A DNA stretch of 40,364 bases from a virus. Its lineage: Duplodnaviria > Heunggongvirae > Uroviricota > Caudoviricetes. The notes beneath the pieces were generated by a model that did not search any database, was not told the origin of the DNA, and saw only the letters and a program-made list of their open reading frames with translations. Location: IMG/VR virus record IMGVR_UViG_2563366860_000007, positions 1 through 40,364 of that record, one strand, 5' to 3'. A program made the position numbers and the translations under genes. Below, in pieces: positions 664 through 30,543 of this stretch. The stretch's first letter is position 1. Each line of letters starts with the position of its first letter.

Positions 664-942
664 TTAAAACCACTCCCTGAGCGGGCGCTCTGGTGTAACC
701 ACCCACTCACGGAACACGGAATCATCAAATCCATCGTCAAGAAGACGGATATTAACAAAGTACCCTTCGTTTCGCGTGTATTCTGGTTCTCCGTCATCAG
801 AAACATCTGTCTCCCTGAACGTAAAACCAATCTCATCAACCAGAACGGCATTCTGCAGCTCTTCGTCCTCTTCCCAGTTAAGTTTCCTGAGAAATGCCCT
901 GAAATCTGCTTTATCACTGAAACGCAACGTGAAATCTCTCAC
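664..942 (-). CDS. Hypothetical acidic protein (92 aa) in the tfa position, coupled to the tail fibre gene
   Basis: GTG start overlaps the stf stop (GTGA); Asp/Glu-rich; no resemblance to lambda Tfa that I can recall. Confidence 0.4.
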   Translation of the reverse strand: MRDFTLRFSDKADFRAFLRKLNWEEDEELQNAVLVDEIGFTFRETDVSDDGEPEYTRNEGYFVNIRLLDDGFDDSVFREWVVTPERPLREWF

Positions 943-3002
943 TTCACAACCTCCCCAAGCTGCGCATCTGTTAGCTCTTTATGCCAGAGACGAAAATTCC
1001 TCACATGCCCAAATAAATGGCGTAATCCTGCTGTAGTTTGTCCACCAATGCGAATGGTTGCTGTACTCCGGATATATTCCCATGTGGTTTTTGTTTCGCT
1101 GGATATACGCCCGTTACTTACTGCACATGTAGACCGTTCGGACTTTACCCGCATACCAATAAGCATTTTTTTCAGCCCGGCATTTTCATTTATTCGTCGG
1201 TCTGAACCACCTATATCGCAATACGGAAAACCGTCGTACCCACCTGATGAACCAAACCCCATTACGATCCCCGCTCCGGTTTGATGACCGCCGGTATCAA
1301 AAACACGCGGCGCTGCATTTGGCGTTTTATACCAGTTCTTATGTACCTCACAAAGAACCGTAAAAGGAAGATTATAAAGATTATTATTAATTGGAACTGT
1401 AACTATATCGCTTGCGCGGGTAGCCGCCGTCGTTCCTGAGATAATAAAAGATGATGCACACGAACCATCCTCAACCTGAGGGGTGGCCAGATAAATATAG
1501 TCTCCAGATACGGTTGCTCCGCCCTGATTAGGAGAATACTGTATCTGAGATCCTATTTTTAACTCATCATCAATTGCCAGGATTGTTGCCTCTGCAAAAA
1601 TCCATCCGGTAGCTTCGTCCTTTCTGACTCTCGCTGTAACCCTTGAGTCCGCGCCACCTGTCATATTAATTTCAAGCGTTTGTGTATCAATATATGCATC
1701 ACCAAGAAAAGTTGTTGCACTACCGTCATATTTATCAAAGCGGATACGCAACCCTACCTGTCGTTCTGTTTTAAAACGACATGAGGTTGTCACGTACTTG
1801 TTATCGCCTGAAACATCAACTGACTTTGTAGCAGCAATTGATGCCATATTAATGGCTGACGTTTTCCCAATCAGAGAATCGTTACAAACAAACTTTCCAT
1901 AAGTAAAACCAAAACTATCAGTTCCAACCTCAGCGACATTCATATTTGCAGATTTACCCCAAGAAGCTGGAGTTGCTGAATTCAACATGTAGTTGGTTCG
2001 CTGACCTTCAATCAATAAACCTTCTTTTTCAAATCGTGGCTCATTAATTTCCGCCGTTTTCAGTTCGCCAGATTTATTGATATATGTTGCCGTTGATGCG
2101 CGACTGAAATTAACCTGTTTATCACTGGCAACCTGAACCACATTATCACCAATCTTCACTTTTTTATAACCCGGAGAATAGCCCGTAATCATATCCAGCG
2201 AATCATTAAAGGGTATCCACACATCCGGCAGCGGCTGTAAAACATATCTGTACGGCTCTGCTGTCTGGTTTGCGTATTCTCTGGCAGCATCTTCACTTGC
2301 TTTTGCTGCCGTCTGGCTTGCTGCCGATGCTTTCGCCGAGTTCGCCGCCGCTGTTTCGCTCACCTTTGCGTTGGCTTCACTGTCTTTGGCATTCGTCTCA
2401 CTGGTTTTCGCTGCCGTCTGGCTGGATTTTGCGTTTTTTTCGCTGGCCTTTGTGGCTGTCTCGCTATTTTTCGCGTTGGTTTCTGATTTTTTGGCTGCTG
2501 TCGCGGAGTTTGCCGATGCAGTCTGCGAGGCCGCTGCCGCCTGTGCGCTGTTAGCTGCATTCGTTTCTGAGGTTTTCGCCGCGTTCTTCGATGATGCCGC
2601 GGCAGTTTCGGATTTCTTTGCTGCCGCTGCGCTCTGTGATGATGCTCCGGCATGACGTGCCACTTCATTCACCATCAGCTCAAAACGGCGCAGTGCCTCC
2701 GGACGAACATCATCCTCCGTCATGGCGCCGAGAAAATCATTCAGCGTACCTGGTCTGGAACCTTCATAGACGGTAATGGTCCCGGCATGTGAAGGCGGAA
2801 AACCTTCAACCAGCAGGGTGACGCTGTACTGGCCATACTCAACATCCATGCTGTAACGCCCGGCTTCATCCGGATTTTCAGAGGCCACCGTGTTCACCAC
2901 CACCGTGCTGCTGGTCCGTCTGGCCTTCAGCACAATGGTGCAGTTCTGTACTGGTTTTCCTGTGCCATCTTTCAGCACACCTGAGATTTTTACTGCTGCC
3001 AT
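939..3002 (-). CDS. stf: Side tail fibre protein (lambda Stf-like N-terminus, collagen-like repeats, divergent C-terminal domain)
   Basis: N-terminus MAAVKISGVLKDGTGKPVQNCTI...GRYSMDVEYGQYSV closely matches recalled lambda Stf; Ala/Ser/Thr/Lys-rich repeats (KKSETNAKNSETA...) follow; ATG at 3000-3002 has a GGAG 6 nt upstream (the track start at 3008 is GTG). Confidence 0.85.
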   Translation of the reverse strand: MAAVKISGVLKDGTGKPVQNCTIVLKARRTSSTVVVNTVASENPDEAGRYSMDVEYGQYSVTLLVEGFPPSHAGTITVYEGSRPGTLNDFLGAMTEDDVRPEALRRFELMVNEVARHAGASSQSAAAAKKSETAAASSKNAAKTSETNAANSAQAAAASQTASANSATAAKKSETNAKNSETATKASEKNAKSSQTAAKTSETNAKDSEANAKVSETAAANSAKASAASQTAAKASEDAAREYANQTAEPYRYVLQPLPDVWIPFNDSLDMITGYSPGYKKVKIGDNVVQVASDKQVNFSRASTATYINKSGELKTAEINEPRFEKEGLLIEGQRTNYMLNSATPASWGKSANMNVAEVGTDSFGFTYGKFVCNDSLIGKTSAINMASIAATKSVDVSGDNKYVTTSCRFKTERQVGLRIRFDKYDGSATTFLGDAYIDTQTLEINMTGGADSRVTARVRKDEATGWIFAEATILAIDDELKIGSQIQYSPNQGGATVSGDYIYLATPQVEDGSCASSFIISGTTAATRASDIVTVPINNNLYNLPFTVLCEVHKNWYKTPNAAPRVFDTGGHQTGAGIVMGFGSSGGYDGFPYCDIGGSDRRINENAGLKKMLIGMRVKSERSTCAVSNGRISSETKTTWEYIRSTATIRIGGQTTAGLRHLFGHVRNFRLWHKELTDAQLGEVVK
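2270..2660 (-). repeat. Tandem collagen-like coding repeats inside stf
   Basis: Repeated DNA units of the form GCTGCCGTCTGGCT / TTCGC...GCCTTTG visible by eye; they also create long spurious ORFs in other frames. Confidence 0.6.
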
Positions 3003-3013
3003 ATCCACTCCAT

Positions 3014-3040
3014 AAAAAAGCCCGCCTGAACCGGCGGGCT
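3014..3040 (-). terminator. Putative rho-independent terminator downstream of lom
   Basis: Plus strand AAAAAA then GCCCGCC-TGAACC-GGCGGGC; on the minus strand this is a stem followed by a U-run, between the lom stop and stf start. Confidence 0.5.
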
Positions 3041-3066
3041 GTCATAACACTGTGTTACCTGGCTAA

Positions 3067-3666
3067 TCAGAACTTATAACCGACACCCACGATGAAACTG
3101 TTGGTACGCCAGTCACCGCTGCCGGAGCCTTCATAAGCGACATCAATGGCCACGGATTCGGTCGGGTTAAACTGCACGCCAGCTCCCCACGCCAGAGACG
3201 TGTTGCTGTGGCGACCGTCATCACTTCCGGTCAGCACATCGTGCTTTTTCCCCTTGTTGTCAGTTACGCGGAGATAATCCCCGGAGAAAGTCGACACACG
3301 GCTGTAAGCCACACCCGCCATCGCATACGCGCTGAACCATTCATTCACGCGTACAGACGGCCCCGCCATCACGCTGAACCAGCGGTTACGCACGGAATCT
3401 TCATGCCAGCGGGTATCGCTGTAGTGCGTTTTTTGCTCATCCTCAGCATTGGCATAACTGAAGGACGTAATCAGCCCCAGCGCGTCCGTAAACTCATAAC
3501 GGTATTTCACGTTAATCCCGTTCAGATTATCGCTGCCGGGAGCGTTCGTACGGGCATGAAGATACCCCGCGCTCAGTGTGGACTGATGTTCAGACGCCCA
3601 TGCAGGCGCACCGGATACGGACAGACAGATGGCTGCGGACAAAATGGCTGCACATAATTTACGCAT
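3067..3666 (-). CDS. lom: Outer membrane protein Lom (Ail/Lom family)
   Basis: Signal peptide MRKLCAAILSAAICLSVSGAPAWA and C-terminal VGVGYKF beta-barrel ending; sits between J and stf as in lambda. Confidence 0.85.
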   Translation of the reverse strand: MRKLCAAILSAAICLSVSGAPAWASEHQSTLSAGYLHARTNAPGSDNLNGINVKYRYEFTDALGLITSFSYANAEDEQKTHYSDTRWHEDSVRNRWFSVMAGPSVRVNEWFSAYAMAGVAYSRVSTFSGDYLRVTDNKGKKHDVLTGSDDGRHSNTSLAWGAGVQFNPTESVAIDVAYEGSGSGDWRTNSFIVGVGYKF

Positions 3667-3690
3667 AATTACCTCTCGCTTTTCTGCAAT

Positions 3691-3714
3691 AAAAAAGGCG
3701 CCATTTCTGGCGCC
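3691..3714 (-). terminator. Putative rho-independent terminator downstream of J
   Basis: Plus strand AAAAAA then GGCGCCATTTCTGGCGCC (perfect hairpin); stem then U-run on the minus strand, between the J stop and lom start. Confidence 0.5.
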
Positions 3715-3733
3715 CGTATATGGGTTATAAAAT

Positions 3734-6700
3734 TCAGCTAATCGTGATGCCTGCAGTGGCTTTCTTCATCACAACAACCAGCAAATCGCTGATACTTGCT
3801 GTGGGATACCAGCCATTTACCCACCATGCTGATACAGAAAACTCCAGCGTCATGTCGCCGCGACCAGCAGGCATATTAATAACACCACTGTAAACCAGCG
3901 TATTATCCAGCGCGGTACGGTTATAAATTTCAGCACCGTTTTTCTTCACTATCAGGCGGCATGACGAATAAGTATCGCTGTTCTCCTGCTCATGTCTGGC
4001 ACCGCTGAAAGCCACCGCCGGAATAACAATCTGCCGGTTAAACGGCTGATCGTCATAAACCCTGACGGTAATGGTTCCTGATGGCCAACGCTTCGGTGCA
4101 CGGGAGTCACGAGGGAAAGCCTTACCCACTGTTTTAACGAGATCGCCTTCAATCTGGTTTGCAGACAGTTTCCCTCTGATGACACAGTTCTCGTTAATGG
4201 TGACATTATTGAGCGTGCCGGTATTCGCCGTGATGGCTCCACTGATATCCGCATTGCGGGCTGTCAGCCTGCCATCCGGCGTCAGGGAAAACGTCGGAGG
4301 ATTGCCGGATGACGTGATGCTCACCGCAAACAGTCGCTTCAGGAACACGTCGTTCATGAACAGCTGATTCCCCTGCGCCACAAATAACGGCGTGGTGTTA
4401 CCGTTCTCCGGAGTAATCATCGCAATGCGATCGGCCTGCAGCAGAATGTTACTCAGCGTCTGACCATCGACATCCTCGATCCCCGCGCCAATCCCGGCCA
4501 CATAGGGAATACCGTTTTTTGTTTTCTGCACCTTCAGCATATACATGGCATTCAGCTCATTGCGCGTGTCTGACTGAACCCGCTGGATTTGCTGTATGGT
4601 CACGGCCTGGTCACCCAGCTTTTTATCCGTGGTCGAGGCAATTTCACTCCCTTTTTCATCCACGTACTGACGGACCTGTGCTATCTGCCGGGCGTTTTCT
4701 GACTGGCCCTGGCTGACTGTCTGCTTGATTTCACTTTGCTTTTTGTCCACGTACTGGCGGACCTGTGCTATCTGTCGGGTATTTTCCTCACTGCTCTGAC
4801 TGACCGTCTGTGAGATTTCACTGCTGACACGGTCCACTTTCTGACTCACCTGCGCGATGGCCAGCGTCTGATCCTCATTCTTTTTCGCAACCAGCTGCGT
4901 GAGGCTGTTTTCCGCCTCCCCGATTTTCCGGGTCACTTCCGCAATATCCGTGTCCATCCGCTGGCGGATGTCTTCTTCCAGTTGTCCGATATTCTCTTCC
5001 AGTTGAGTGACATCCGATCGCAGGGCTGACGCATCAATGCGCTTTTTCAGTGCCTGCCCCAGCAGCGTCTCATCTATCAGACCACGGAAAAATTCCAGAT
5101 ACCCTTTTGCATCATTGCTGGCCTGCCCGCTGGCTTCCACAAATGCAGACTTGCCCACCAGGTTGACACTGCGCACATAAAACCAGAAATCCATCCCCGG
5201 CTTAATCCGATCGCCCTGGACAGTCCACTGACTGCCGGTCCCCAGATAACGGGCAGATTTTTCCACCTGTGCCGTGTTCGTGATGCGTTTTTCTGAGAAC
5301 CAGAATTCAAACTGTACCGTCGGGTCATACACCGCAAGACGCGGGACCGCCGTTATCTGAAAATACCCCGGCGTCAGCTCAATCCGCGATGGCGCTGCCG
5401 GTGCGGCAATCCGGAACGATACCGACGCCGGATCGCCCTGCTGTCCCCACGCATTTACCGCCCGGACTGTCAGCCTGTAGTTCCCCAGAGCCAGTTGTGT
5501 GAAGCGGTATGTGGTTTCCGTCGTCCTGGCCGTGCTGACCAGCCGCTCACTGCCATCGTCCGCTGCCACGGTCAGGCGAAGCAGGAAGCTCACGCCCTTC
5601 ACCACCTTCGGCGTGTCCCAGCGCGCCAGCACCTGATATTCCCCGCTGTCTGCAGTGACTTCGGCGGTCAGATGCTGCACTGCTGGCGGCGTGACACCAT
5701 TCACCGTGCCGCTCTGGTCACCGTCAAAGTGCGCCCCGTTATCCACGATGGCTTCTTTTTCCGGTACATGCTGCACGGCGGTGATGGCATACGTGCCGTC
5801 ATCGTTCTCACGGATACTCACGCAGCGGAACAGGCGCTGGCGCAGCGTCGGCAGCTTCAGCCCCCACACGCTGTATCCGGCAACGCCGTCAGGAACACGG
5901 CTCACTTTTACCTTCACGCCGTCGGTGACGGACTGGACCTCCACGCTGACCGGATTACCACTTCCGTCAACCAGGCTTATCAGCGTGGTACCGGAGGATG
6001 GCAGCGTGATTTCACGGTCGAGCGTCAGTGTCCGCGTCTGGCTGTTCACCGCCAGCACGCGCCCGCCGGTGCTGATACCCGCATAGTCATCATCACAGAT
6101 TTCAATAACATCGCCCGGTACATGGCGAAGCCCTTCTGCGCCCACGCTGAAGTCCACGGTCTGCGTTTCCAGCAGCTCCGTTTTAATCAGCCACAGCCCG
6201 GCGCGGTGTGCCTGCCCCCGGCTGGTACAGCCAAAGGCATCCATCTTCGTGACATTACGACCGTAACGGGCAATGGCCCGCGTGTCCTCCACAAGCTCTG
6301 TCGCCGTCTCCCAGCCGTTATCCGGATCAATCCAGTTCACCTCAACGGCATTATGACGGTCCTTCAGGGCGCTGAAGCTGTAGCGGAACGGCGCGCCATC
6401 ATCCGGCATCACCACATTACTGCGGTTGTAGGTCCACACCTTATCTGACGGTCGGTCCTGCACGAACGTCAGCGTCTGCCCGTTCCATACCGGCATACAG
6501 CGCATCGCCGAGCAGAAATCACTGAGCACATCCCACGCCTTACGCTGTGTGGTCAGGTACGCATTACAGGTGATGCGCGGCTCCGTACCGCCAAAACCGT
6601 CCGGCACCGACTGGTCGCAATACTGGCCGATGACATACAGCGCCCATTTATCCACATCCGCCGCACCAAGACGTTTCCCCATGCCGTAGCGCGGGTGGGT

Positions 6701-7540
6701 CAGCATATCCCACAGACACCATGCCATGTTGTTGCTGTATGCTGGCTTAAACGTTCCGTCCCAGATACCGCTGTATTGCCGCGTCTGCGGGTTATAGTTC
6801 GACGGCACCTGCAGAATGCGCCCGCGCAGATGATAATTACGGCTCACCTGCTGGCTGCCGAACTGCTCCGAGTCCACCTGCACGCCGACCAGTGCCGTGT
6901 TCGGGTAGCACTGTTTCACATCGATAATTTCGGTGTATGACGACCAGAGCGTTTTGTTCTGCAGCTGGTCTGTGGTGCTGTCCGGCGTCATCCTGCGCAT
7001 CCGGATATTAAACGGGCGCGGCGGCAGGTTACCCACCACCACCGAGGCCAGATACTGTGAGGTGGTTTTGCCTTTAATGGTGATGTCTTTTTCCGTCACC
7101 CAGCCACCGTTACGTTGTATCTGAACCAGCAGGCGGACTTCCGACGGATTCCTGTCTCCCTTTGAGGTGGTTTCCACCAGTGCCTGTACACCGAAGGTAA
7201 AGCGCAGACGGTCGATGTTTGCCGACGTGATGGTCCGGGTGATCGGCGTTTCATATTTCACTTCCGTACCGAGCACCGTCTCGGAACCGGAGGATTCAAA
7301 TCCCTCCGGCGGTGACTGCTCCTGCTCACCTGCCCGGAACACCACCGTGACGCCGGAGATATTGGTATTCCCCTCACTGTCCAGCACCGGCGTACTGTTC
7401 AGCAGCACACTTTTTAATCCATCCACCGGACCTTCAATCGGCCCTTCGCTGATGGCATCAATCGCACTCAACAGCTGCGTGGATTTCAGGTTATCTTTCG
7501 CTTCGCGCGGGGTATGCCCCTTACTGCTGCCTTTACCCAT
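3734..7540 (-). CDS. J: Host specificity protein J (central tail fibre / tail tip), 1268 aa
   Basis: N-terminal ~1000 aa match recalled lambda J ([24 protein letters not shown]...); C-terminal part carries a coiled-coil repeat insertion and a divergent receptor-binding end. Confidence 0.9.
4641..4900 (-). repeat. About three tandem ~87-bp repeats inside J encoding a repeated coiled-coil segment
   Basis: Near-identical DNA units begin at about 4641, 4728 and 4812 (ATTTCAC...CACGTACTG.CGGACCTGTGCTATCTG); the protein shows ...[13 protein letters not shown]... then ...[13 protein letters not shown]... Confidence 0.6.
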
Positions 7541-7600
7541 TCGTCATGCTCCATAAACGACAAAACCGCCCGGAGGCGGTTTCACATAAAACATTTTGCA

Positions 7601-8272
7601 TCAGCGACCAATCACCACAACCTGACCACCGTCCCCTTCGTCTGCCGTGCTGATCTCCTGAGAAACCACCCGCGACCCCACACGCATTTCACCGTACAGA
7701 ACAGGCAGAACATTGCCCTGAGCAACCATGTTATCCAGTGAGGAAAAATAGGTGTTCTGTTTGCCGTTATCCGTTGTCTGTGTACGGGGAGTTCTGGCTT
7801 TCGGTGCCAGCATCTGCGCCACACCACCGAGCACCATACTGGCACCGAGAGAAAACAGGATGCCGGTCATACCACCGGCCCCAATGGCTGCCCCCCATGC
7901 TGCAAGGGTGGCTCCGGCAGTAAAGAATGATCCGGCAATGGCGGCAGCTCCCAGGACAATCTGGAATACACCACCTGACTTGGCCCCGGCGACTCTGGGA
8001 ACAATATGAATCACAGCGCCATCAGGCAGAGTCTCATGTAACTGCGCCGTTAATCCGGACGTGCTGACATCCCGCCCGGCAATCCGTACCTGATACCAGC
8101 CGTCGCTCAGTTTCTGACGAAACGCCGGGAGCTGTGTGGCCAGCGCCCGGATAGCTTCAGCCCCCGTTTTCACACGAAGATCGATGCGGCGGCCAAATCG
8201 TTGCAAATCCCCGTAAAGGCAGATGCGTGCCATGCCCGGTGACGCCAGAGGGAGTGTGTGCGTCGCTGCCAT
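7601..8272 (-). CDS. I: Tail assembly protein I
   Basis: 223 aa; MAATHTLPLASPGMARICLYGDLQRFGRRIDLRV matches recalled lambda gpI. Confidence 0.85.
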   Translation of the reverse strand: MAATHTLPLASPGMARICLYGDLQRFGRRIDLRVKTGAEAIRALATQLPAFRQKLSDGWYQVRIAGRDVSTSGLTAQLHETLPDGAVIHIVPRVAGAKSGGVFQIVLGAAAIAGSFFTAGATLAAWGAAIGAGGMTGILFSLGASMVLGGVAQMLAPKARTPRTQTTDNGKQNTYFSSLDNMVAQGNVLPVLYGEMRVGSRVVSQEISTADEGDGGQVVVIGR

Positions 8273-8913
8273 TTGTCGGTATACCTCTCTCGTTTGCTCA
8301 GTTGTTCAGGAATATGGTGCAGCAGCTCGCCATCACCACAGTAAATGGCGGCATGATTCGGCACCGATGAACCAAAACAGCACAGCAGCACATCGCCCGG
8401 TTGTGCTGATGACAACGGCACCTGATACAGCCCTGTGGCCTCCAGATTATCCAGATAGAGATTCTGACCGTGACGCCACCAGTCATCCTCGCGATGAAAA
8501 TCCGGCATCTCAATCCCCGCCAGATGATAAGCATCCCGGAACAGCGTGTAACAGTCCGTCACCCCGTGCTCAAAGCGCCGCCCGGTGAGATGCGGCACAC
8601 AGCGGAACTTATGAATCGTCCCCCGGCAGACCAGCCACCACGGCAAATCACTCTGCACCTGCAGCCGCCGGTCGGCCTCACTCAGCCAGGGCAGACCACC
8701 GGGGTGGCTGTGGACCAGCGCCACAATCTCACCCTGCATTTCTGCCTGCAGCCAGTCTTCCGGCGACATACGGAAATACGCCTCCGGCTCACCGGAGATA
8801 TTCACGCAGGGAAAATATCTTTCCCCCTCCGGCGTTCTCACTACGAAGCCGCACGACTCCGCTGGCGCACATCGCCGGGCGTGCGCCAGAATCGCTGATT
8901 CTGTCTCTGTCAT
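8170..8913 (-). CDS. K: Tail tip assembly protein K (MPN/JAMM plus NlpC/P60-like domains)
   Basis: JAMM motif HSHPGG...SEAD and a Cys-containing NlpC/P60-like region; ATG at 8911-8913 (MTETES...) gives 247 aa, the lambda-style annotated start (MSPEDW, 8769) gives 199 aa; its 3' end overlaps gene I by about 100 nt as in lambda. Confidence 0.75.
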   Translation of the reverse strand: MTETESAILAHARRCAPAESCGFVVRTPEGERYFPCVNISGEPEAYFRMSPEDWLQAEMQGEIVALVHSHPGGLPWLSEADRRLQVQSDLPWWLVCRGTIHKFRCVPHLTGRRFEHGVTDCYTLFRDAYHLAGIEMPDFHREDDWWRHGQNLYLDNLEATGLYQVPLSSAQPGDVLLCCFGSSVPNHAAIYCGDGELLHHIPEQLSKRERYTDKWQRRTHSLWRHRAWHASAFTGICNDLAAASIFV

Positions 8914-8917
8914 GGGA

Positions 8918-9616
8918 TTACTGCGAAAGTTTGTTAATAGAAAGGAAGCCGCCAAAGTTGCCGACATTATTGCGAAACTTACAACCACTCAGGCATTTGC
9001 TGCATTTATCCTTCGTGATATCGGACGTCGGCTGGTCATATTCATCCGCGACCGCCGGACCGTGATAACCGCACTCATCACCGCGATAGGTCCAGGTGCA
9101 GGTGTTGGCCAGCATGATACGCCCCGGAAAAACAGCGCCATCCGTTTCCGTCGGCGTGGACAGTACAAAAGAGGCACTCACCGCGCTCAGTTCGCTGCAC
9201 TGCTCGATGCGCCAGCGGCTGATCACCTCCTGCTCCGGATCGGCGTCACTGTTTCCGTTGACGAAGTTCACCGCATCCAGAAAACGGGCGTAAACCTTAC
9301 GCCGGACCACCGTTCCGCCGACCAGACTCTGCAGATCTTCCGCCATCCCGGTGACCATACCGTACAGGTTAGAAACCGTCAGCGTGGGGCGCGTACTGGT
9401 GCCTTTGCCATTCAGTTCGAAACCACTCCCCTGAATGGGATATGCCTGATACTGTCGCCCCTGCCAGGTGACCGGCTCACCTTTTTCGTTCTGCTCATTA
9501 CAGAAAAAATAACGTTCTCCACCAACCTCTGTCAGATCGATTTCCCAGAGCACCACGCTGGCAGACTGCTCCGCACGGGTGCATTCATTCAGTGTTTCCT
9601 GTCGGATATCCTGCAT
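8918..9616 (-). CDS. L: Minor tail protein L
   Basis: 232 aa; MQDIRQETLNECTRAEQSASVVLWEIDLTEVGGERYFFCNE matches recalled lambda gpL, including the C-terminal Cys cluster. Confidence 0.9.
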   Translation of the reverse strand: MQDIRQETLNECTRAEQSASVVLWEIDLTEVGGERYFFCNEQNEKGEPVTWQGRQYQAYPIQGSGFELNGKGTSTRPTLTVSNLYGMVTGMAEDLQSLVGGTVVRRKVYARFLDAVNFVNGNSDADPEQEVISRWRIEQCSELSAVSASFVLSTPTETDGAVFPGRIMLANTCTWTYRGDECGYHGPAVADEYDQPTSDITKDKCSKCLSGCKFRNNVGNFGGFLSINKLSQ

Positions 9617-9957: not shown

Positions 9958-12900
9958 TCAGCATTCCTCCGTCACGTCGCATGGACAGCATCACCGCCTG
10001 CACCCGCTGGTCAATCAGCTGCACAAGACTGCCTGCCGCCTCCGGCCCTATCTGTCCGTTAGCCCCGTCATTCTGAATGGCGATGTGGTAGACCGGGGAA
10101 TACACCAGACCGGCACTGCCGTTCATACTGCCCACCGCGCGTACGCCCAGCGAGCCATCCGCCGCCCGGGTCAGGGGCATAATGGCTTCAGGTCCGGCTT
10201 CCCCCATCAGCCCGGCCCCTTTTGCAAACGCAAAGTACGTGGGCGTGTCCACAATGCTGTTGCTGTACGCACTCAGATTTGCCGATGTGTAAACACCACC
10301 TTTTGCGTTTGCCACTGCCCCCGAAATCCATCCGCCGACCGTACCAAGCCACCCTCCGGCACCGGAGAGTGATTTCAGTCCGTTAACAATGGCTGCATTC
10401 ATCAGAATTTTTGAAACTTCCCGGAGAACTGAACTCCCCCAGTTCCTCCAGTCCACAACATTCCCGGCCAGTGCATCGGAAATATTTGATACCAGCCCGT
10501 CCATCGTGGAAACGACAGCATCTGCCGCCTGCGAAGCATAATCGGTGGCACTGTCTGCCCAGTTCGTCAGCCCCTCTTTGAGCCCGGCATTCCAGTTACT
10601 GCGTAAAGCATCAGCCTTTGCATAATAATCCTGCTGATCGCTGAGACGCTCTTCCAGATATTTTTTATTCAGCTCTTTCTCCTGTTTCCACAGGGCTTCT
10701 TCAATTTCTCCGGCCTGATACTGTCTCAGTAGCTCGTTATTTTTCTGCTCAAACTCCTGCCGGATGCTCCACATTTCCTGAAGTCGTTCACGCATCCGTG
10801 AGCCTTCACCATATCCCAGTAACTGAGCCTCATTTGATGCTCTGACACTGGCATTACTGTCCGCCAGACTGCTCTCATACGCAGCAAGCTGCTCACGAAT
10901 CTTTTTCTGGTCGATAAGTGCTGCATTCTGCAAAAGCGTTTTTTTCTGCGCTTCTGACAGGGTTGATAATTCGCCCTGACTGACCTGATATTTCATCTTA
11001 GCCAGTTCAGTATTCTGCCCTGCCAGTGCTATCTGTTCTTTTTGCTGTTTAATCAGCCGTTTATAAATATCCTCTGTTTTTTCCGCTTCGGTCTTTTTAT
11101 GCGCTTTGGGTTTATTTGCCTGGTTATTTCGCCATGCATCCAGTGAGTTATTTATATAATTCAGTCTTGCTGTCTGATACGCCTCTCCCACAAAGCCGAG
11201 ATCATCCGCAGCATAACCCAGGCGGGCACGCTCACGAGCTTCCCCCTTCAGGCGGGACAGAGCCAGTTCGCGCTCGCTGTTATTCAGTGCGGTCTGCTGT
11301 TTATCATCCAGGGTTGCCTGTGGTAGCCGTAACGGTACATTCACCAGCCCCTGTCGCTGCTGAAGTAATTCATTACCGAGCCCGAGAAGGCGATTAAACT
11401 CGGTATGCTGCCCATTCATGATCAACAGGGACTGATACGCTTTGTTTTGTTCCGCTGCCTGTTGACGGATCAACGCCACCCGTCGCTCCTCCAGCCCGGC
11501 AAGCACATCCTGAATGGATTGCGCTTTGCCCTGCATTTGAGTGAGGCGAGACTGTTCAACTGCCAGTTGATTTGTTGCTTCTGCAAGCCCTTCTGTGACA
11601 GTTTTTACCGACGTCATGTGGTTAATCATAAAACCGTTATCGGTTGTCCAGCCCGGGTTTGCCAGCACATACTGATAGCCAGCAATTTTTTCCTGTAAGG
11701 ATTTAATCTTACTTTTCTGCTCGTCAATTAACCTGTTTTGCTCCTTCAGTGCCTGTCGCGTCTTTTCCTCATTATCTGACGCTTCAGGAAGCGACATTGC
11801 CGACGTTTTCTGGCGAATTTCGTCGATTGTTGCGGCATACTGGCGTGCAGATTCTCTGGCCTGCTCCTGATTCTGATACATCGTGTACCAGGCCGCAGCC
11901 CCCAGCATGACGAGTCCCGGCACACCACCAACCAGCCCCAGCGCGCCACTTAATAAACGACTCCCCACTGACGTAACATTATTCAGCGTTGTCTGTGCCG
12001 CTGTTCTGGCCGCAATATTACGGGTAAGTGACACCTGGGCAGCTGTCAGCTTCGCTTCTGCTGCGGCCTGCCTTTCGGTACCGCGAGCAGCAACAACCGC
12101 CTGTTGCGCACGATAAACCGCCGCACGCGCCCTGGCGGTTGCTATCTGTGTCCCCCGAAGTTGCACTTCAGCAAGAGCCACTTCGTTTCTGGCTGCAGTA
12201 ATTAATCCGGCAGTTGCAGATCCAGCAGACGACGCCATATTGCCAAAATATCGGGCTACCCCGACGGCAACCAGAGCACCGGCAGCGGTTGCCACGGTGT
12301 CAATATTGCCTGCAATACCATTCAGCACACCGGAGAGCGTCTTCGTCACTCCGCTTGCCTCGTTCGCACCACCAACCCAGGCCATAAAGGCGTTTTCAAC
12401 TTTGGTTGCAGAGGATGAAACCGTATCAGGCATTGCCGCATATTCATCACGTAATGCCCCAAGCTGACTAATCAGTGCAGGAACAACCTTATCGGCGGTC
12501 AACTTTCCGTTATCCGCCATGGCCTTCAGATCCTTACGGGCAACTCCCATTCCCGCAGCCAGAGCACGAATAACACGATCGCCGTTCTCATTCACCGAGT
12601 TAAACTCTTCACCGCGCAGCACTCCCTGCGCCAGAGCCTGACTGAACTGCGTGATCACCGAACTGGCTTCTGCTGTACTGGCACCGGATAATTTCAGGCC
12701 CGTGGAGATCGCCTCGGTGACTTTCAGTACCTCCTCAGAACTGTAACCATACTCCCGCATGGAAGCTGCAGAGCGGGCAAAAAGGCTGGCGTTATCAGAA
12801 AAAGCCGTCCCCGTTCTCTGGCTGATCGCCATTAATTCACGCTGTGATGACTGAAAATCATCACTGGACTGTGAGGCCTGCTTCAGACGGGCATTTACTG

Positions 12901-29060: not shown

Positions 29061-29554
29061 TAAGCCCCCACGAAATTCCCTGACAGATACCACTCTTCAC
29101 CCGATGCAGCGCGCTTGCTGCTTTTCCGTAAGCACCGCTCACGACGTGCCAGAAAATTGTTTCGTTCTGGCTGGGAGTGGCTTTCACGGAATGCCGCCAT
29201 CCACACCGTTGCAGCACGACGGTATAAGCCCCTGGACTCCAGTTCTTCAGCCTGGCGGGTCAGGCACAAAATCACACGGGGATCGTTAGTGCCGACATAG
29301 AAATTGCGCACAGGTCTGGTTTCACGAACTGGTTGTGGTTCCGGATCCTGCGCTCTCTCAGTCAGGCGTGGGAAATGTCTGCGTGTATCTCCTTCACAAC
29401 GGTGAGCCACACGCCCACTCTGACGTAACTTGCTTGCTGACTGCAGAACGCGCTGCCGTGAGTAACCAGCAAAAGCATCCGCAATGTCTCCGGAAGTACA
29501 CCCCGGATGGGCTTCAATGAATTTCTGAACGTCATTCAAAAGACTCATGATCAC
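29060..29554 (-). CDS. Hypothetical protein, possibly PerC-like regulator; coupled to the replication initiator
   Basis: 164 aa; C-terminal LESRGLYRRAATVWMAAF resembles the recalled PerC-family core; start overlaps the O-like stop (ATGA); sits where lambda P would be but is not P-like. Confidence 0.35.
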   Translation of the reverse strand: MIMSLLNDVQKFIEAHPGCTSGDIADAFAGYSRQRVLQSASKLRQSGRVAHRCEGDTRRHFPRLTERAQDPEPQPVRETRPVRNFYVGTNDPRVILCLTRQAEELESRGLYRRAATVWMAAFRESHSQPERNNFLARRERCLRKSSKRAASGEEWYLSGNFVGA

Positions 29555-30543
29555 CCCCTGAATCCTGCCGGGATCTGGCTGTAGTCCACATTGTCGTAAC
29601 TGGCTTTGAAGTACGGGTCTTCGCGTTTTTCGGTGTACGTGCTTACGGACGGCGATAAGCGCAGGGAAAGCTCATCCCATTTTTCCCGCAGCTTCGACGG
29701 GCTGAGCACGTTACGGCACCAGAACGGATCGCGGCTGACGCGGCTGTACATCTCGCAGATTTGTTTGTGAGTACGACCATCCTGCACACACATCAGGCGA
29801 ATTTCGTTTGCCCATGCTGTCCAGTTCGGTTCTTTGGGACGAACCACCTCGCCGTCACATTCGGCGGCCTGCTCGTACAGGGCGATGATTTTTTTCCAGA
29901 GCCACTGTGCGCAGGTCAAATCATCCTGCGTTCCCCACTGGCGCTTTTTAGGGCTGAATACAACCGCATCAGGATGGCGAGTTAAAAACTCCTGTTCAGC
30001 CGTTTGCGTGTCCGGTTGCGAAGCGTCCGGACGAGAAGAGGTTTTATTCTCTGTAGTAATCTCTGTTGTATTCTCTGTAAGATCATTGGGCCATTTTGAC
30101 CCGATGACAGCGTGTCGTTTTGAACCAATGGATCGTGTCATTTTGCGCCCATCCATCAGGTCACTTTGACCCGATGGAGAAGTGCATTTTGACCTGATGG
30201 ATTCGTTCACTTTGACCTCTTCTAAAAGCTCACTTTCATAGTTGATCGTGTAGAAGTTGGTCATGTCACGCTTCGATTTATTGAGTTGCTCGCGACGCAA
30301 AACCCCAAGTGATTTCAGGCTTGCAAATGTGCGTTTCAGAGTGGACTCTGACCAGAACGGAAACTGCTCCAGCCACTGTTCTGTCGTGTTATAAACCCAG
30401 CGAATTCCGCCATGCTCAGTGCCTGAATTCGTTTCATTCAGCCAGTAATGAAGCTGCTGCAACACAATTGCCTCATTCAGACCAATACGGCATGCAAGAT
30501 CACGATTTATCACAATGGGCTGGGATGTCATTAACAGGCTCAT
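29551..30543 (-). CDS. Replication initiation protein (lambda O-like role) containing the origin iterons
   Basis: 330 aa; an iteron array lies inside the coding sequence as in lambda O; family membership not resolved. Confidence 0.6.
   Translation of the reverse strand: MSLLMTSQPIVINRDLACRIGLNEAIVLQQLHYWLNETNSGTEHGGIRWVYNTTEQWLEQFPFWSESTLKRTFASLKSLGVLRREQLNKSKRDMTNFYTINYESELLEEVKVNESIRSKCTSPSGQSDLMDGRKMTRSIGSKRHAVIGSKWPNDLTENTTEITTENKTSSRPDASQPDTQTAEQEFLTRHPDAVVFSPKKRQWGTQDDLTCAQWLWKKIIALYEQAAECDGEVVRPKEPNWTAWANEIRLMCVQDGRTHKQICEMYSRVSRDPFWCRNVLSPSKLREKWDELSLRLSPSVSTYTEKREDPYFKASYDNVDYSQIPAGFRG
30091..30215. repeat. Origin-of-replication iterons inside the initiator gene
   Basis: Five to six direct repeats of about 22-23 bp with core (C/T)ATTTTGACC(C/T)GATGG, for example CCATTTTGACCCGATGACAG, TCACTTTGACCCGATGGAGA, TGCATTTTGACCTGATGGATT. 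Confidence 0.65.

Follow-up and report, generated by a model that had tools for sequence, protein, structure and literature searches.

Gene J of a lambdoid Escherichia coli prophage, which encodes the tip attachment or central tail fibre protein, carries an in-frame 87-bp tandem repeat that probably represents an old duplication of one 29-residue module of the alpha-helical shaft (AHS), lengthening a rigid spacer. The prophage sequence is the IMG/VR record IMGVR_UViG_2563366860_000007, whose 40,364 nucleotides are called the window below; all J features lie on its minus strand. J extends from position 3734 to 7540, and translation of this open reading frame (ORF) gave 1268 amino acids (aa), 136 more than the 1132 aa of lambda J, in agreement with an earlier inspection of the letters alone (the sequence-only reading). 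That inspection had noted that the extra length coincides with nearly identical tandem repeats encoding a heptad-rich segment just before the receptor-binding C terminus that could expand or contract by slippage. The shaft is located at positions 4535-5110 (aa 811-1002) between the FNIII-2 domain and the beta-prism.

Tandem Repeats Finder reported an 87-bp period at positions 4651-4852 (2.0 to 2.2 copies, 76 to 82% matches, score 237), and a separate repeat search found copies at 4641-4727 and 4728-4814 with a spacing of 87 nucleotides (nt) and 75% identity. Codon phasing confirmed that the repeat is in frame with J. It consists of two adjacent units of 29 codons each, named B1 (4736-4822, aa 907-935) and B2 (4649-4735, aa 936-964). 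The two units are identical at 65 of 87 nt (75%) and at 22 of 29 aa, and their longest exact run comprises 17 nt, which does not justify calling the copies nearly identical. Their codon differences are evenly divided between synonymous (7) and non-synonymous (7) changes. Since the other strand has no ORF longer than 65 aa across the repeat and no Rfam family was matched within positions 3500-8000, the repeat is a feature of the J reading frame.

The duplication accounts for 29 of the 136 extra residues; the remainder is made up of older, degenerate 29-residue modules and one extra heptad, so that the repeat explains the additional length of J in part only. When the protein was written in rows of 29 anchored on the 87-bp repeat, residues 820-1004 formed six full rows and a partial seventh, i.e., about six and a half modules, in a single register. 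The two N-terminal rows (4910-5083, aa 820-877) were assigned by register and column conservation. They are followed by unit A (4823-4909, aa 878-906), an older paralogous module in the register of the B units with 45 to 51% nt identity to them, by B1 and B2, and by unit A″ (4562-4648, aa 965-993), a degenerate module that was recognized by alignment and register and is present in all long and medium alleles. The extra heptad, ENIGQLE (4976-4996, aa 849-855), belongs to a tandem duplication of 21 bp at 4962-5003, of which it forms one copy.

The 29-residue register is also evident from the periodicity of the protein. In a BLOSUM-based self-similarity analysis of J, the signal at lag 29 reached a z score of 11.6 against 500 shuffles, and self-similarity was also raised at lags 58, 11, 22, and 40. 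As the z score at lag 29 was still 6.5 in the allele with one copy, the signal is independent of the tandem pair. Isoleucine or leucine occupies column 3 of the module in seven of seven rows; hydrophobic residues occur in columns 18, 21, and 25, and glutamine, asparagine, or methionine in column 14. The hydrophobicity spectrum peaked at 3.635 residues (29/8) with a power of 142, above all 500 shuffles (best power per shuffle: mean 43, standard deviation 14, maximum 106), whereas the power at the heptad value of 3.5 was 5.9 and thus near zero. The term heptad-rich is therefore not appropriate for this segment. Each module contains core positions 3, 7, 10/11, 14, 18, 21, 25, and 28 over eight helical turns, with a spacing of 4-3-4-4-3-4-3-4, which corresponds to 7+11+11 residues and 3.63 residues per turn. 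Such a period would imply a nearly straight, almost unsupercoiled helix bundle rather than a heptad supercoil. Natural insertions and deletions occur in sizes of 7, 11, 29, and 58 residues, and in silico deletions of each of these lengths left the phase of the 3.63-residue seam intact. Hendecad-type coiled coils likewise have periods above 3.5 residues per turn and are built from 7- and 11-residue elements; they are unrelated to J and resemble it in principle only. To our knowledge, the 29-residue (7+11+11) unit does not belong to a named repeat family.

No Pfam family covers aa 819-981, which fall into the gap between Ig_J_second and Phage_Tail_Tip. AlphaFold2, run on the monomer, predicted helices at aa 811-824 and 826-1002, effectively one continuous helix, with pLDDT values of 77 to 91 over aa 846-975. 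Together with the amphipathic seam, this prediction upholds the proposal that the insert is helical and of the coiled-coil type. Its position had been placed too close to the C terminus, as about 135 residues, the beta-prism (aa 982-1109), separate the module array from the receptor-binding domain (RBD; aa 1138-1268).

The lambda gpJ AHS, located at the same place between FNIII-2 and the beta-prism, belongs to the same family (82% identity overall) and allowed the extra modules to be placed. The window shaft aligns to both ends of lambda AHS residues 809-861: the first row (aa 820-848) and the last segment (NAMY/NAMW...YVAGIG) match directly, and unit A″, the last full row, is the positional counterpart of lambda residues ~841-861. 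Lambda thus has row 1, nine residues, and the last partial row; in the window, five additional rows replace the nine residues (5 x 29 - 9 = 136). No solved structure contains a counterpart of these additional modules. In the lambda structures (Ge and Wang 2024, PMC11101478; PDB 8iyk/8k35/8xci), residues 809-861 form a three-helix bundle that clamps the FNIII-2 domains. By analogy, the window shaft would be a parallel trimer and, at 0.15 nm per residue, its ~190 residues would span ~28 nm compared to ~8 nm for the ~53 residues of lambda.

To compare shaft lengths among relatives, the shaft region was measured between the landmarks GYLxFF and Y[VI]AG[IL]G. It comprises 69 aa in lambda and PhiR47_1, 97 aa in PhiR46_1 (1159-aa J), 170 aa in PhiR49_2 and the prophages L078, L079, and L081 (1228- to 1232-aa J), and 206 aa in the window, CE10, and two IMG/VR contigs (L029, L045); in the J of L082 it amounts to 307 aa, where the measurement starts at YL, one residue into the first landmark. 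L081 is the prophage of strain SB0258h1. The J genes of PhiR49_2 and SB0258h1 have exactly 87 bp less at the B repeat, so the expectation that copy number differs among relatives was borne out. The common allele of 1231 to 1232 aa lacks exactly one B unit (87 bp), namely B1, and one heptad (21 bp), namely ENIGQLE, 36 aa in total. The J proteins of the Escherichia phages PhiR49_2 and PhiR40_1 and the common allele are 97% identical to that of the window and share its module array and RBD, although the shaft DNA differs by 3 to 10%.

Among 73 related loci with a readable region, it measured 170 aa in 70 and 206 aa in three, the window being a fourth case of 206 aa; the tandem pair was present in 2 of 71 IMG/VR loci holding the conserved repeat core. 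We then searched 5,426 complete E. coli genomes with a 348-bp probe. In 604 records the match covered 261 bp, which corresponds to one copy, and 14 records were read as two copies, in the case of CE10 confirmed by the length of the matched place and in the other 13 assigned by the identity band of at least 95%. The length of the matched place (261 versus 348 bp) was scored and not the percent coverage, which is misleading here: one-copy alleles reached 100% since a single subject piece was joined to both copies of the query. According to these counts, ~13% of the complete genomes carry a long shaft and ~2% of the long-shaft records a second copy. Neither intermediates nor a three-copy or single-indel form occurred in the 73 loci and ~618 complete-genome records; the 87-bp and 21-bp indels were always linked.

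A search of a representative library of 1.84 billion proteins gave only 65 hits, and all convincing ones were J proteins of the E. coli type; the multi-stretch outliers P0143 and P0157 turned out to be unrelated repeat proteins. A protein-database search with the shaft returned only fragments below 400 aa and no full-length J, and brought up the variants P0009, P0013, and P0017, although it did not lend itself to copy counts. P0017 and P0099 contain exact internal duplications that are possible assembly errors, and both were left out of the evidence. A large proportion of the entries matching this part of J consists of partial proteins encoded on contigs of ~0.4 to 1.2 kb, some of them in clusters with thousands of members (P0001-P0097), suggesting that assemblies from short reads are regularly interrupted within or close to the shaft repeats.

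The divergence of the two units and the mosaic structure of J bear on the age of the duplication. At the nt level, B2 shares 91% identity with the single unit of PhiR49_2. B1 shares 80% with the single units found in two other lineages and 75% with B2. Both copies resemble single units of other alleles more than they resemble each other. The first ~2.2 kb of J are largely those of the SB0258h1/PhiR49_2 lineage, with 0 to 7 mismatches per 100 nt up to nt 1900, rising to 13 to 39 over nt 1900-2200. From nt ~2300 to 3807, covering shaft, prism, and RBD, J shows 0 to 4 mismatches per 100 nt to that of CE10, although the N-terminal part of CE10 J is 9 to 38 mismatches per 100 nt away from the window. 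Within the shaft region, the haplotype with two copies differs by 3 to 10% from the one-copy haplotype, and the same RBD was found with one or two copies. The copy identities suggest that the duplication is old, or that it arose when diverged alleles crossed over unequally, and the mosaicism of J points to a two-copy segment that was spread as a recombination cassette and is shared with CE10; it does not look like an actively slipping tract.

A different behaviour was observed in a sister lineage represented by the L082 gpJ (NZ_CP033635, 1609-5325). The shaft of this 1238-aa protein contains 2.9 copies of a 174-bp unit (58 aa = 2 x 29) with 96% identity and 2.4 copies of a 33-bp (11-aa) unit with 97% identity. 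In 23 complete genomes with 96.7 to 99.6% identity, the region matching the full 1001-bp probe measured 1002, 828, or 795 bp, and ten records matching only an 829-bp part of the probe spanned 656 bp. These lengths correspond to three versus two of the 174-bp units, combined with the presence or absence of one 33-bp unit. The contig encoding P0009 (L005, 5843-6500) was riddled with frameshifts, and the 174-bp repeat was therefore confirmed in NZ_CP033635 instead. The J of L082 ends in a different C terminus that lacks the Ig_GpJ_C receptor-binding domain, and small ORFs follow the gene; the RBD may thus be encoded separately. In L005, a fibre gene downstream of J (8750-9561) carries 18 copies of a collagen-like 45-bp repeat, and a YadA-anchor protein (12083-12360) carries 2.8 copies of a 99-bp repeat with 98% identity.

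Taken together, these results make it probable that the 87-bp repeat arose by an old in-frame duplication of a shaft module and serves to extend a rigid spacer. The shaft would form a rod between the FNIII collar below the tail hub on one side and the beta-prism with the RBD on the other. It would determine by what distance the receptor-binding tip protrudes from the tail, which would place the tip ~20 nm further out than in lambda and ~5 nm further than in the common 1232-aa allele. A longer reach could plausibly help the tip to contact an outer-membrane porin through the O-antigen of wild E. coli strains. Following receptor binding, the shaft would then come apart and fold back to let the tube reach the membrane, as described for lambda, where the AHS flips by ~180 degrees on LamB binding, residues 841-861 become beta strands atop the prism, and the distance from FNIII to the tip shrinks from 29.7 to 13.2 nm (PMC11101478). 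Across the family, shaft length shifts in quanta of 7, 11, 29, and 58 residues that preserve the seam.

Several observations weigh against this explanation. The AlphaFold2 model was a monomer built on an alignment of 13 sequences, and the flanking domains were predicted poorly (mean pLDDT 53.5). The proposed reach through the O-antigen goes back to long alleles noticed in ST131, ST95, ST69, and O7:K1 strains and in CE10, an impression gained without phylogenetic control. Short-shaft lambda particles equipped with the OmpC-binding A8 tip deliver DNA into K1 and K5 strains when combined with a capsule-specific side fibre (PMC11338833), which shows that delivery can do without a long shaft. Furthermore, the ~2% share of the two-copy allele also fits a nearly neutral variant.

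We therefore considered that seam-keeping insertions might simply be harmless and that the extra module and heptad are an effectively neutral polymorphism without an adaptive role, an explanation that remains a tentative one, with a smaller but appreciable chance of being correct. The rarity of the two-copy allele (~14 of ~618 long-shaft records and 2 of 71 IMG/VR loci), its occurrence with the same RBD as the one-copy allele, and the success of short-shaft chimeras on diverse hosts (PMC11338833) are in agreement with neutrality. On the other hand, shaft length covers a five-fold range across the family in discrete, lineage-specific classes, the core positions of the module are conserved, and the two-copy cassette is identical in unrelated N-terminal backgrounds. 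The length classes, the conservation of the core, and the retention of the cassette suggest that selection acts on the shaft as a whole, but do not demonstrate it for this particular copy.

The shaft might also act as a fold-switching spring, which we regard as unlikely. According to this idea, the ~190-residue three-helix rod is metastable, and after porin binding each 29-residue module would be converted into a beta-hairpin layer on the prism, with one hairpin contributed by each chain; the tail tube would be pulled down by ~25 to 30 nm, and alleles with ~1.3 to 10 modules would provide a graded stroke and graded stored energy, a part of the idea that we hold to be just as unlikely. The strands formed by lambda residues 841-861 after LamB binding (PMC11101478) are a precedent on a small scale. 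A larger one is the F7 pyocin, in which the entire coiled coil of 163 residues is converted; AlphaFold predictions show the same behaviour for numerous fibres of siphophages (PMC12874032). The window shaft is of similar size, lies directly N-terminal to the beta-prism that could serve as a seed, and its modules are rich in glutamine, serine, threonine, valine, and isoleucine with about equal propensities for helix and strand. The F7 motif SxSxxMxxLxS, a recurring pattern with one occurrence for each future strand, has its only two full matches at aa 980-998 in the last module, in opposite orientations and adjoining the prism. This motif was not enriched, however, with two full matches compared to 1.2 expected (P=0.35) and fewer four-of-five matches than in shuffles; the B units contain no full motif, and only B1 has one four-of-five match. 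The F2 pyocin chain 25vf gave a marginal match (E=0.003) to query residues 122-262 (J aa 927-1067), which include the end of the shaft and the prism and lie mostly outside the shaft. The shaft alone matched no solved fibre when searched against the PDB, the sole hit being a weak one to apolipoprotein A-IV (E=0.06), which reflects a generic amphipathic helix of 11/22-residue periodicity. AlphaFold2 predicted helix only, albeit for a monomer, and the authors of the F7 study described lambda as lacking an extensive switch (PMC12874032).

The slippage proposed by the sequence-only reading would make the 87-bp copies a hypervariable tract that often expands and contracts, by replication slippage or unequal recombination, and provides a pool of fibre lengths. 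The difference in copy number between the window J and its closest relatives is in line with this proposal, and so is the sister lineage, where 174-bp units of 96% identity occur in two or three copies and the 33-bp unit also varies among genes that are 97 to 99.6% identical. For the allele in the window it is improbable and largely refuted: near-identical copies are missing, as the B copies share only 75% identity and at most 17 nt of exact match, each of them has its nearest match in a single-copy unit elsewhere and not in the adjacent copy, and the haplotypes with one and two copies show 3 to 10% flanking divergence. Moreover, in place of many copy-number states, only those of 170 and 206 aa exist in the 73 loci and ~618 records, with no three-copy form and no unlinked indel. 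The general idea of expansion and contraction thus holds for the sister lineage and is not supported for the 87-bp repeat, with its diverged copies and two linked states. The sequence-only reading was partly confirmed, as it described a real feature, tandem in arrangement and variable in copy number, in terms that were overstated, and its interpretation was partly supported. Of the two outcomes that it had named as refuting, a non-tandem arrangement and one copy number in all relatives, neither was observed.

A role of the lengthened shaft as a docking platform for side fibres or accessory proteins appears very unlikely. In the F2 pyocin, three side-fibre trimers bind to a glycine kink of the long shaft (PMC13455828), and the window shaft has several glycines, G852 in the extra heptad and G945 and G964 in or adjoining B2. 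In contrast to the pyocin, AlphaFold2 showed no kink, and the side tail fibre gene of the window (939-3008) encodes the lambda-type domain PF08400, which in Ur-lambda forms a collar on the gpV/gpM junction and not on J (PMC12617516). A mis-assembled second copy can practically be dismissed: many database J fragments do end in the shaft region, where short-read assemblies break, but the 206-aa region, identical or with 3 to 4 residues exchanged, recurs in two independent IMG/VR contigs and in the complete genomes of CE10 and of about twelve further strains, and copies differing at 22 of 87 positions are no collapsed or expanded identical repeat.

Besides the lambda AHS, a parallel to the long shaft is provided by the central fibres of F-type pyocins (F2, PMC13455828; F7, PMC12874032). 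These have a comparably long three-helix shaft reaching from the FNIII domains to the beta-prism of a lambda-like hub protein, and the long version has been proposed to power membrane puncture. They differ from the window J in that there is no significant sequence similarity between the shafts and no enrichment of the F7 motif in the window, and the side fibres of lambda-type phages attach elsewhere. Gene J, its shaft, and fibre-length variation driven by repeats are already known kinds. A looser parallel is provided by the stalks of the trimeric autotransporters YadA and BadA, unrelated proteins that resemble J in principle only and whose rod length varies by tandem duplication of whole structural modules. 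Among the full texts searched, no paper was found on a 29-residue (7+11+11) module or on shaft-length classes in lambdoid J, and within that literature we found no description of the five-fold range of shaft lengths or of the rare six-module allele. Recent cryo-EM work has identified the J shaft as the moving element of the lambda tail tip. E. coli prophages offer a natural series of such shafts, with 69 to 307 residues between fixed landmarks and built on one 29-residue module. As its members often share hub and RBD, the series provides material for tests of O-antigen reach and of fold switching, and it would also be of practical use for engineering lambda-based delivery particles.

The remainder of J and its surroundings are of the lambda type. 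The window represents a lambdoid prophage of E. coli whose head genes are of the HK97 type and whose tail is of the lambda type, with the genes arranged in the lambda order (tape measure, M, L, K, I, J, lom, stf). Its first 25 kb are 98.3% identical to the prophage of strain SB0258h1 (L081), and the window ORFs agree coordinate for coordinate with the annotated L081 genes, including an annotated gpJ. Six Pfam J families were matched in J, all above their cut-offs, giving the domain set FNIII-A, the Phage-tail_3 hub, two Ig/FNIII domains, the tail-tip beta-prism, and a C-terminal Ig-like RBD. In a phmmer search against the PDB, lambda gpJ 8iyk matched J with E=0 over aa 1-838 and 977-1267. Ig_J_second (FNIII-2) was assigned by Pfam to aa 716-818, the central straight fibre or beta-prism (Phage_Tail_Tip; 4214-4597) by Pfam and by matches to PDB 8jvm, 8xcj, and 9wca, and the RBD (Ig_GpJ_C; 3737-4129) by Pfam.

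The closest solved relative of the C-terminal part of J is 9wca, 'A8 gpJ 713' (E=6.6e-109), an engineered chimera of lambda with OmpC as its receptor (PMC11338833). The RBD of the window J is clearly diverged from the 9wca tip. A porin such as OmpC as the receptor is only a guess.

Two further observations concern other genes of the window. The side tail fibre gene on the minus strand (939-3008) encodes 689 aa with an N-terminal lambda-type collar domain, PF08400, and its length differs by 6 nt from that of its counterpart in the closest prophage. Short tandem repeats at 30048-30079 (12 bp, 2.7 copies) and 30161-30218 (23 bp, 2.5 copies) lie inside a minus-strand ORF (29551-30543) without a Pfam match and could be origin iterons inside a replication gene, as in lambda O.

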